Of a DNA stretch of 45,439 bases, positions 38,245-40,368 are shown piece by piece. Positions within the stretch are counted from its first letter, which is position 1. Each line of letters opens with the position of its first letter. The notes under the pieces were generated by a model that saw only the letters and a list, made by a program, of their open reading frames with translations, had not been told where the DNA came from and did no database searches. The translations under genes were made by a program, and so were the position numbers. Origin of the DNA: a virus (taxonomy: Duplodnaviria > Heunggongvirae > Uroviricota > Caudoviricetes); IMG/VR virus record IMGVR_UViG_2872678658_000002. One strand, 5' to 3'.

Positions 38245-38664
38245 ATGGTTCATGAAGATAAAGCGCGTAAAGAGTTCGCCAGTAGGCTTGCGCTAGCCTG
38301 TGAAAACGCTGGTTATGAACAACATGGAAGGCAGGCAGAAATTGCCCGTCGAATGAAATTAACACCAAAAGCGGTTAGCAAATGGTTTAATGGCGAAACA
38401 ATTCCTCGCCGGGAGAAATTAAGGGAATTAGCAACACTAATAGGAACAACACCAACCTATCTTTTGGGAGAGGATACAGAAGAAAGTGGACAGGTACGTT
38501 TCTATCAGGAGTTAAATCCAAGACAAAAAATCATCATTGACCTTCTGGACGAGCTCCCTGACAGTGAGACAGATGAACTTTTAAAAACTCTTGAAGAGAA
38601 AAAACAGAAGTACAATGCAATTTACGAAGAGTTAGCACGAAAGAAAAAACAAAAAGCCTCTTAA
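38245..38664 (+). CDS. CI-like prophage repressor (HTH_XRE)
   Basis: 139 aa; HTH (GRQAEIARRMKLTPKAVSKWFNG); divergently oriented to Cro-like gene. Confidence 0.7.
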   Translation: MVHEDKARKEFASRLALACENAGYEQHGRQAEIARRMKLTPKAVSKWFNGETIPRREKLRELATLIGTTPTYLLGEDTEESGQVRFYQELNPRQKIIIDLLDELPDSETDELLKTLEEKKQKYNAIYEELARKKKQKAS

Positions 38665-38734
38665 ACCAGCATAAATCCGGTAGCGCCTTCCTCCGGGTTT
38701 GTGCTTCACTTTATCCCATCTCATTTTTTTACAC

Positions 38735-38785
38735 ACAAAATGTACTAAAAGTACTTTACAACAATGAACGCAAAGTACATTATAT
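38735..38785 (+). promoter_or_regulatory. OL/pL-like operator-promoter candidate downstream of repressor
   Basis: ATGTACT (38740), palindromic AAGTACTT (38749) and AGTACAT (38774) share the heptamer seen in the OR-like region. Confidence 0.4.
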
Positions 38786-38965
38786 ACCTGCCACCCACCC
38801 CACCCCACAGAATGCAGGGCAATACTTCGAGTTACCAGGCAGTGGTCAGGGGTTAAGTAGCCAGCCCGAGGCGTAAGAACATGACGGCAGGGTTCAACTT
38901 TAATAACTATGCAGCAGGTTTTTGTTCCGCTACCCCGGCGTTAAGGGGAAACAGAGGATTTCTCA

Positions 38966-39322
38966 GTGGGCGAAGTCAAACATCAGAATGGAAGGCGTCC
39001 AGGGATCAGCAAAGAAACAGCGATGGCGCTTTATATTGATATCAGCGCCATTGCCGGACAGGTAAGAATTATCAGAGCGGTAACTAAGCGGTATGCGCCT
39101 TTACTTCAGAAAGTCTCTGGTGAGTGCACCGAAGATATTGTCAACGATTTCGTCATCAAACTGCGAGGACTCATCTTCAGTTACAAGGTGACCACAATTT
39201 TTGCAGATGGCTCCCGCGAAACTGTCAGAGCCCTGCGGTTTAAAGGATGTGTCAAAGACTTCGCCACCACATTCTGGGCAAGAAAACTTGATTGTATTCA
39301 TAACCAATTTCCTCTCGAGTAA
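38966..39322 (+). CDS. hypothetical protein (first ORF of early-left operon), antisense-overlapping a zinc-ribbon ORF
   Basis: GTG start with AGAGGA 7 nt upstream; same strand as repressor and dicB operon. Confidence 0.35.
   Translation: MGEVKHQNGRRPGISKETAMALYIDISAIAGQVRIIRAVTKRYAPLLQKVSGECTEDIVNDFVIKLRGLIFSYKVTTIFADGSRETVRALRFKGCVKDFATTFWARKLDCIHNQFPLE
39101..39301 (-). CDS. small zinc-ribbon protein (CPECG...CKNCG)
   Basis: 66 aa from ATG 39301 with GAGAGGA Shine-Dalgarno; two CxxC pairs 24 residues apart; acidic C-terminus. Confidence 0.45.
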   Translation of the reverse strand: MNTIKFSCPECGGEVFDTSFKPQGSDSFAGAICKNCGHLVTEDESSQFDDEIVDNIFGALTRDFLK

Positions 39323-39393
39323 CAGACCCCTCAGAGGATACCACCTCGCCTGACGTGGTTAAAAGCAGGCAACGCTAACCACAAGGAGCCGAC

Positions 39394-39612
39394 ATGCAGA
39401 AACGAGAACCCGTCATCATCGCGCCAGACTATACCGATGATGAACTTTATGAGTGGATGCGCCAGAAAATTAATGCAGCGCAGGATCTGAAATGGGCCAA
39501 TGAAGCCAGGGCTAAGCAGGCTGAAAATCTGTCCGCTCTGGAGCAGGATATCACCAATCTGGAAAAAGCAGCGGCATTAAGCATTGCCAGAATGATTACA
39601 TACCCGCGTTAA
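39394..39612 (+). CDS. YdfC-like small protein
   Basis: 72 aa with strong AAGGAG RBS; same size and position as Qin ydfC upstream of dicF. Confidence 0.6.
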   Translation: MQKREPVIIAPDYTDDELYEWMRQKINAAQDLKWANEARAKQAENLSALEQDITNLEKAAALSIARMITYPR

Positions 39613-39952: not shown

Positions 39953-40010
39953 TTTCTGGTGACGTTTGGCGGTATCAGTTTTACTCCGTGACTGCTCTGC
40001 CGCCCTTTTT
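39953..40010 (+). ncRNA. dicF: DicF small RNA
   Basis: TTTCTGGTGACGTTTGGCGGTATCAGTTTTACTCCGTGACTGCTCTGCCGCCCTTTTT matches remembered DicF; lies in long ORF-free structured leader upstream of dicB. Confidence 0.85.
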
Positions 40011-40179
40011 AAAGTGAATTTTGTGATGTGGTGAATGCGGCTGAGCGCACGCGGAACAGTTAAAACCAAAAACAGTGTTATGGGTGGATTCTCTGTATCC
40101 GGCGTTAATTGTTAACTGGTTAACGTCACCTGGAGGCACCAGGCACCGCATCACAAAATTCATTGTTGAGGACGCGATA

Positions 40180-40368
40180 ATGGAAACGTTATTACCAAAC
40201 GTTAATACGTCTGAAGGTTGTTTTGAAATTGGTGTCACTATCAGTAACCCTGAATTTACTGAAGATGCCATTAACAAGAGAAAACACGAACGGGAGTTAT
40301 TAAATAAAATATGCATTGTTTCAATGCTGGCCCGTTTACGCCTGATGCAAAAAGGACGCTGGCAATGA
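40180..40368 (+). CDS. dicB: cell-division inhibitor DicB
   Basis: 62 aa METLLPNVNTSEGCFEIGVTISNPEFTEDAINKRKHERELLNKICIVSMLARLRLMQKGRWQ, near-identical to remembered DicB; GAGGA RBS. Confidence 0.85.
   Translation: METLLPNVNTSEGCFEIGVTISNPEFTEDAINKRKHERELLNKICIVSMLARLRLMQKGRWQ

Follow-up and report, generated by a model that had tools for sequence, protein, structure and literature searches.

Evidence for a conserved antisense gene-within-gene pair in the early region of lambdoid prophages

The DNA examined here (the window) is the 45,439-nucleotide IMG/VR virus record IMGVR_UViG_2872678658_000002 (Caudoviricetes), which at positions 38966 to 39322 carries two open reading frames (ORFs) on opposite strands of the same DNA, the smaller of which encodes a putative zinc ribbon. 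From comparison of related sequences, the two are judged to be a genuine, anciently conserved antisense gene-within-gene pair, an unusually well-supported addition to a rare class, and part of what appears to be an old, mobile module of lambdoid phages. We consider it probable that proteins are encoded on each strand of 39101-39301, with the first cistron of an early operon on the plus strand and a self-contained zinc-ribbon gene on the minus strand, and that expression of the two is convergent and antagonistic. Long antisense overlaps of protein-coding genes are widely held to be rare and are often contested, and most proposed bacterial cases rest on expression data. The support in the present case is of the opposite kind, consisting of independent selection signatures in both frames that are retained across phages of E. 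coli, Klebsiella, Citrobacter, Enterobacter, and Edwardsiella. If the interpretation is correct, the pair would rank among the best-conserved antisense overlapping genes in bacteria and phages, and would offer a tractable model for the co-evolution of two proteins on one DNA.

The two reading frames and their register

The plus ORF (38966..39322) extends from a GTG to a TAA stop at 39320-39322 and specifies 118 amino acids, and the minus ORF extends from an ATG at 39301 to a stop at 39103-39101 and specifies 66 (MNTIKFSCPECGG...CKNCGH), both as described in an initial annotation of the window; a 68-amino-acid form of the latter, with a TTG start at 39307, is also in the list of ORFs. The minus ORF (39101..39301, minus strand), hereafter the zinc-ribbon gene, lies wholly inside the plus ORF, and its product has the arrangement C8-x2-C11...C33-x2-C36 followed by an acidic C-terminal tail. 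Its Shine-Dalgarno (SD) sequence, GAGAGGAAA, occupies 39308..39316 on the minus strand and is, as had been noticed, the complement of TTTCCTCTC within the final plus codons TTT CCT CTC GAG TAA. The initial annotation credited each ORF with a strong SD; this stands for the minus ORF, whose SD is kept in every clade, but not for the plus ORF, where the combination of AGAGGA (38953-38958, 7 nt 5' of GTG 38966) with a GTG or ATG start is confined to the E. coli clade, and where the conserved ATG at 39023 has a weak SD in the window. GTG 38966 also has to be replaced as the general plus start: every relative shares the start codon ATG 39023, which is residue 20 in the 118-amino-acid form and gives a 99-amino-acid ORF (39023..39322, plus strand; predicted alpha-alpha-beta-beta-alpha) that is preceded in the E. 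coli clade only by a 19-codon N-terminal extension (38966..39022). The first ~26 codons of the 99-amino-acid ORF are outside the overlap, and the remainder reads through the antisense gene. Over the queried interval 38660-39400, the window is 100% identical to a prophage of the avian pathogenic E. coli (APEC) strain IMT5155.

The codons of the two frames coincide exactly, plus position 1 lying opposite minus position 3, and position 2 opposite position 2. This exact-antisense or shadow register is stop-poor, since antisense stops arise only from TTA, CTA, and TCA codons, and because of it an ORF pair in one sequence is not beyond chance; many other nested antisense ORFs are listed in the same window. 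A pair in a single sequence being unremarkable, the choice that had been posed, between one spurious member and a genuine pair, is therefore decided by comparison with relatives. The codon-level conservation check that had been proposed was run on loci of E. coli, Klebsiella, Citrobacter, and Enterobacter and of metagenomic origin together with 80 IMG/VR contigs, which gave 54 distinct module sequences, and on four distant phage relatives. Both ORFs were recovered by protein searches down to ~40-60% identity. Unlike the ORF pair in one sequence, the comparative evidence is judged to exceed chance, and it favors a genuine pair.

Selection in the zinc-ribbon and plus frames

Of the 54 distinct sequences, 50 have the zinc-ribbon ORF intact at 66 codons and without indels, the exceptions being an internal stop in L083, frameshifts in L090 and L095, and an ambiguous base in L046; when only divergent loci are considered, all 12 of 12 retain 66 codons without indels. 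Cysteines 8, 11, 33, and 36 are invariant in all intact homologues, including those of phages HK639, KP12, and Edno5, and zinc binding is predicted. Together with the NCBIfam family NF047912 (ECs_2282 family putative zinc-binding protein), which matches the minus ORF over profile positions 1-56 of 60 at 57.3 bits (cut-off 37; E=1e-15), they bear out the original description of the product as a zinc ribbon. In all clades, the plus codons opposite these cysteine codons keep an A in the third position. The ATG and SD are conserved, the latter appearing as AGGAGG, AGAAGG, or GAGAGG and being present in every clade, even in those clades where the plus ORF has already ended. The ratio of nonsynonymous to synonymous substitution (dN/dS) in the zinc frame is 0.08-0.19 within the E. 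coli clade and ~0.2-0.28 between clades, and 29/53 segregating variants in the overlap are synonymous in this frame, against a fraction of 0.24 expected under neutrality (P=1.3e-6). Parsimony changes in the overlap, counted by plus codon position, are [120,29,81] and are thus concentrated at the zinc wobble position, and the corresponding ratio of polymorphism (pN/pS) is 0.39, versus ~1.3 (1.29) in a simulation where only the plus frame was under selection. The zinc-ribbon gene is therefore judged to be real and its frame to be under strong purifying selection.

The converse proposition, that only the plus ORF is real and the zinc-ribbon ORF a fortuitous antisense frame, takes some comfort from the many gene callers that call the plus ORF alone, as does the Prokaryotic Genome Annotation Pipeline (PGAP) in genomes of E. 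coli that make Shiga toxin (STEC), from a poor AlphaFold model of the zinc protein (predicted local distance difference test score, pLDDT, 58.6, with seven sequences only), and from two natural nonsense alleles. One of these, a stop at E14 (39262 C>A), is found in the PPompW-type copies of STEC (L110, L111, and L113, the last being EDL933), and changes F to L in the plus frame; the other, which is independent, converts E44 from GAG to TAG at the equivalent of 39172 (C>A) in the IMG/VR contig L083, and is synonymous in the plus frame (CTC to CTA). However, the concentration of substitutions at zinc wobble positions, a dN/dS of 0.08-0.28 where a plus-only model predicts ~1.3, the invariance across genera of the CxxC...CxxC motif, ATG, SD, and length, and the NCBIfam match above cut-off make a fortuitous zinc frame extremely improbable. 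The poor model and the two alleles nevertheless count as points against a functional pair, for with the E14 stop fixed in the STEC PPompW-type copies and the E44 stop in one IMG/VR contig the zinc-ribbon gene is dispensable. The same alleles separate the two genes naturally, as the zinc stops are silent or conservative in the other frame, and they make the system directly testable.

Evidence on the plus frame comes in part from codons that the zinc-ribbon gene does not reach. Across the module sequences, the plus frame is open over the whole overlap, its start codon lies ~25-35 codons upstream of the zinc stop, and an SD-like motif precedes that start in most clades. In the 24 non-overlapping plus codons, the summed pN/pS is 0.41, the lowest of the six frames, and Fitch parsimony changes by codon position are [28,31,66] (P=2e-5), or [14,22,49] (P=7e-6) without the E. 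coli clade; the Klebsiella clade alone has 12 synonymous and 4 nonsynonymous variants in its non-overlapping plus codons (P=1.7e-4). The periodicity starts at the conserved ATG; the region just upstream in the Klebsiella clade, an internal control, is flat (22:21:20) and contains stops. Within the overlap, leucine in the zinc frame is never encoded by TTA or CTA, nor serine by TCA, apart from the codon-2 TCA of the Klebsiella clade, which forms the plus stop itself, and a codon model gives a chance of 0.006-0.03 that the plus frame would stay open in six lineages. Between clades, the plus pN/pS in the overlap is 0.72, as against 1.06-1.20 under selection on the zinc frame only, and 0/200 simulations were as low; adding a plus-frame omega of ~0.5 to the simulation reproduces the overlap data. 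A point to be set against this is that a star tree and a simple mutation model underlie the simulations, whose P values are therefore approximate. AlphaFold2 modeled the plus protein from a 23-sequence alignment as a compact helix-helix-hairpin-helix structure (pLDDT 85.1; predicted template modeling score, pTM, 0.70). A transcription start mapped upstream of the plus ATG in EDL933, described below, gives the plus-sense RNA a known 5' end and further supports this frame. The model has no recognizable fold relative, and the protein has no significant match in PDB, BFVD, Pfam, or NCBIfam; the PHROG family phrog_21318, which has no assigned function, aligns over its positions 1-99 of 99 with residues 20-118 (E=8.8e-67). 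Taken as a whole, the substitution patterns point to moderate, variable purifying selection on the plus frame.

It might be argued that only the zinc-ribbon gene is real, the plus ORF being a mere shadow in a stop-poor frame, extended by chance and taken up by gene callers. The register is indeed the classic shadow frame, a curated PGAP family exists for the zinc protein alone, and the plus protein, lacking any Pfam or NCBIfam family or fold relative, has just 9 representatives among 1.84 billion; its frame is also almost neutral in the E. coli clade. Yet the periodicity and the lowest pN/pS of six frames are seen precisely in the 24 codons outside the zinc-ribbon gene, and, unlike a shadow artefact, the plus ORF has a conserved ATG, with an SD-like motif in most clades, heading ~25 codons beyond the zinc stop. 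At least 10 lineages that diverged separately keep its frame open, four subfamilies at 14-33% identity among them, its pN/pS in the overlap lies below every simulation with selection on the zinc frame only, and its structural model is a confident one. We consider the shadow explanation very unlikely.

The plus protein is most open to question in the E. coli clade, which includes the window. Plus nonsense variants are absent from this clade, versus 4.6 expected (P=0.01). Its plus amino acid changes are near neutral, with 13/53 variants synonymous in the overlap and 12/35 outside it, and the plus protein appears to be only weakly constrained there, which has to be set against a functional role. 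The N-terminal extension is open in all E. coli-clade sequences and evolves neutrally (9 synonymous and 27 nonsynonymous variants), and a 1-nt deletion in the EDL933 copy and in that of O157:H7 Anguil (L110) puts the GTG-38966 start out of frame. The absence of nonsense variants alongside neutral-looking amino acid changes is what would be expected if the plus ORF were selected for translation itself, shielding the early-operon transcript (ydfC-dicF-dicB...) from Rho-dependent polarity, and if its product had little function or none, in the E. coli clade at least; the variable, dispensable extension and the location of the plus ORF, always the first cistron of, or inside, an early operon, also fit this idea. 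Outside the E. coli clade, however, the sequence is constrained: the Klebsiella ratio of 12 synonymous to 4 nonsynonymous variants and pairwise values of pN (0.04-0.14) versus pS (0.41-0.76) are not those of a product without function, motifs of the plus protein survive in HK639, KP12, and Edno5, and a compact fold is predicted. Selection for translation alone is thus unlikely as a general explanation. Two variations in the length of the plus ORF were seen in other genera. The Enterobacter-type plus ORFs (L009 and L010; P0040 and P0041) have an N-terminal extension of ~30 amino acids with a conserved CxxCG knuckle (CKSCG or CPHCG), and in the Citrobacter loci L006-L008 the plus ORF is open for 174 amino acids.

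Conservation in distant phages

Searches by tblastn with the zinc protein found homologues of 29-34% identity in HK639, in the Klebsiella phages ST974-OXA48phi18.2, 5 LV-2017, and KP12, and in Enterobacter phages. An intact zinc-ribbon-like ORF (63-73 amino acids, CPxCGS...CAxCGREI) is present in HK639, ST974-OXA48phi18.2, KP12, 5 LV-2017, and ENT1, and in all five it lies wholly antisense within an ORF of 95-115 amino acids; for HK639, the register was confirmed to be the same. In HK639, pL and the putL-like antiterminator RNA are followed first by the large ORF, HK639_45, and a search with HK639_45 led to gp50 of Edwardsiella phage Edno5, the antisense strand of which encodes an intact 70-amino-acid CPNCGS...CASCGR protein. 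Profile comparison by hhalign joined the plus families at 97% probability (E=5e-11) and 14% identity, with the non-overlapping N-terminus included, and the zinc families at 98% probability (E=8e-14). The plus-protein motifs L-x-V/I-D-x-S, TTV-x-ADG, and F-x-x-A-F/L-R-A are those that survive to HK639, KP12, and Edno5. Both ORFs therefore persist together down to ~14-33% protein identity, and the nucleotide sequence is by then so diverged that chance retention, in each lineage, of a 95-120-codon antisense ORF with its start signal is not credible.

Co-persistence of the ORFs bears on a further possibility, in which each lineage would use one gene only, the zinc-ribbon gene in E. coli-type and the larger ORF in Klebsiella-type prophages, while the other frame decays and the two are never functional together. 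The zinc frame is far more constrained than the plus frame in E. coli, whereas the Klebsiella clade has a plus frame (11 synonymous to 9 nonsynonymous) that appears at least as constrained as the zinc frame (8 to 12), and the STEC copies have lost the zinc-ribbon gene and kept the plus ORF. Against this, disruptions among the 54 sequences are limited to one zinc nonsense mutation (L083) and two frameshifts that break both frames (L090 and L095). In addition, both ORFs are intact in all distant relatives, and comparisons between clades show simultaneous constraint in both frames; even between HK639 and the ST974 phage, where changes in the overlap are [25,7,11], pN/pS is 0.27 for the zinc frame and 0.47 for the non-overlapping part of the plus frame. 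Alternation of this kind is judged to be distinctly unlikely, and a pair in which both members are functional is preferred.

The pair has so far been divided between genomes by annotation. In RefSeq, a genome has either the minus or the plus ORF annotated, never both: the minus ORF is the sole PGAP coding sequence here in IMT5155, where the identical sequence is given the NF047912 family name, and in Sakai (ECs_2282), and the plus ORF is the sole one (99 amino acids, WP_001240336) in EDL933 (EDL933_RS09595), O157:H7, and O121 strains. The switch of strand by PGAP occurs because the STEC copies carry the E14 stop in the zinc-ribbon gene. The module is present in 937/5426 complete E. coli genomes (~17%), including those of Sakai, EDL933, and APEC strains, and the pair exposes a systematic annotation conflict that makes each protein invisible in part of the database. 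No paper on the locus came up in literature searches that used locus tags, accessions, and peptide strings; its sole trace is as a BLAST hit in Table S12 of the Zehentner preprint, a genome-wide survey of overlapping ORFs.

Comparable pairs have been proposed in enterohemorrhagic E. coli (EHEC), where two coding frames likewise lie on opposite strands, one embedded in the other, and where annotation pipelines keep only one. The titles and abstracts of those reports describe novel short ORFs that are mainly supported by expression, at least one being attributed to overprinting. The pair described here differs in that its support is evolutionary, both frames being conserved across genera and phage types to 14-33% identity, and in that each member is RefSeq-annotated in different genomes.

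Genomic setting and possible expression

The pair lies downstream of the repressor, as had been stated: a DicA-like helix-turn-helix (HTH) repressor gene (38245..38664, plus strand; PF01381 E=2e-9; NF007257 DicA 57 bits, below cut-off) is located 5' to it. A PL-type promoter with operators follows at 38738..38790 (plus strand; TTTACA-17-CATTAT at 38755-38783), its operators and hexamers being ~80% identical to those of HK022 oL/pL, and a leader of ~160 nt (38793-38951, plus strand) separates it from the ORF pair. Downstream on the plus strand are ydfC (39394-39612), the small RNA gene DicF (39954-40005; Rfam, 76.7 bits), and, after DicF, dicB, a DUF1482 gene, and an exonuclease gene. The plus strand is the direction of the "leftward" early operon, and the plus ORF is its first ORF. 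In all loci fetched, the larger ORF is co-directional with the early operon; cI/PL precedes the module in E. coli, Citrobacter, Enterobacter, HK639, and Edno5, and cro takes that place in two Klebsiella/Citrobacter prophages. The pair thus sits at the regulatory heart of the prophage, after the repressor and PL and, in HK639, after putL, and may couple two small proteins to the lysis-lysogeny state.

In the mechanism that we propose, the plus strand would give a 99-amino-acid protein (118 from the clade-specific GTG) as the first cistron of a repressor-controlled early (PL/dicB-type) operon, and the zinc-ribbon gene, equipped with a conserved SD of its own and a promoter-like block, would be transcribed towards PL, the two promoters facing each other ~550 bp apart. 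The candidate promoter/operator block is the 37-nt sequence GGATACCACCTCGCCTGACGTGGTTAAAAGCAGGC (39335..39371, minus strand), in which TTAACC (39362-39357) and TATCCT (39340-39335), the latter preceded by TGG, are separated by a 16-nt spacer containing the inverted repeat ACCAC-N10-GTGGT. Every clade, and likewise Klebsiella phage ST974-OXA48phi18.2, has a related block 5' of the zinc ATG, the sequence farther upstream being unrelated, and we infer that it serves as the promoter/operator of the zinc-ribbon gene. If both promoters fired, polymerases would converge and the mRNAs would share at least 200 nt of full complementarity, and each gene would therefore be expected to antagonize expression of the other, by transcriptional interference and by pairing of the RNAs into duplexes. 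On the model of lambda sieB, the zinc protein would mainly be made while PL is repressed, and the larger protein when the early operon fires. An either/or switch tied to the repressor, in which convergent promoters draw two functional proteins, a lysogenic and an early lytic product, from one duplex, is offered tentatively, as a possibility that we ourselves regard as doubtful.

Several observations weigh against this scheme. The candidate zinc promoter matches just 8/12 consensus positions, and scans for sigma-70 promoters and terminators gave no site above threshold for the zinc-ribbon gene. Other E. coli genomes, roughly a thousand to judge from the counts, carry the 37-nt block at 100% identity while lacking the pair; in L109, the sole pair-less copy that was examined, the block lies at a mosaic junction upstream of the dicF region. 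Published Cappable-seq data (PMC10469882 supplement) place a transcription start site 129 nt upstream of the plus ATG in EDL933 (position 1848930; EDL933_RS09595) in 9/9 conditions, and a plus-sense start active in all conditions in this lysogen misfits a strictly lytic role. Among the matches listed, these data have no start on the zinc strand, EDL933 being a strain with the zinc nonsense allele, and literature searches found no Ribo-seq, proteomic, or tagging record for either frame. A structured 5' leader sequestering the zinc SD was considered and dropped, as RNAalifold gave only four weak pairs.

The resemblance of the zinc-ribbon gene to lambda sieB lies in its being a small accessory gene just downstream of PL that is transcribed against the early-left operon. 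Lambda sieB differs in standing beside N and not inside another gene, and the zinc protein has no SieB similarity, so that superinfection exclusion is suggested by analogy only. In the Enterobacter-type locus L009, a SieB-family (PF14163) gene (1823-2323) is found immediately upstream of the zinc-ribbon gene and co-oriented with it, both being antisense to the cI-side early operon, as is lambda sieB. The restriction-alleviation zinc proteins Lar and Ral of Rac-like prophages are likewise CxxC...CxxC proteins of ~60 amino acids specified by early-region genes of defective lambdoid prophages, but membership of the zinc protein in the Lar family was rejected (TIGR03655 15.7 bits versus a cut-off of 39.6; phrog_6422 E=0.01). 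The plus ORF, as the first PL-operon cistron, has the same genomic position as lambda N and HK022 Nun, and HK639_45 follows pL and putL; unlike those proteins, however, its product has no sequence or profile similarity to them and is predicted to be compact and not disordered, and the module follows cro in two loci. Readings as N/Nun-like, Lar-like, or toxin-antitoxin proteins all lacked sequence support. PDB sequence searches returned nothing significant for either protein, PADLOC gave nothing for the plus protein and weak matches only for the zinc protein, Pfam gave only sub-threshold generic zinc-ribbon matches for the latter, and a profile scan of genome contigs with the zinc alignment yielded just two irrelevant matches.

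A few features of the surroundings deserve mention. The repressor beside the HK022-like operators is a 139-amino-acid DicA-like HTH protein without an S24 peptidase domain, unlike HK022 cI. The unannotated leader at 38793-38951 is conserved (87-100%) in 4062/5426 complete E. coli genomes, K-12 strains included, often without the ORF pair; a put-like antiterminator role for it was rejected, as it has no alignment to HK022 or HK639 putL, no Rfam match, and no stable predicted fold. Apart from DicF, an Rfam search in and beside the pair gave only a sub-threshold STnc100-like match downstream: this small RNA family aligns at 40003-40212, directly after DicF and overlapping the start of dicB, and scores 38.7 bits where the gathering score is 47. 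An inserted PaaA2/ParE toxin-antitoxin pair separates the repressor from the module in several E. coli prophages (L014/L015, L016/L017, and Sakai Sp12, locus L112, 24052-24523).

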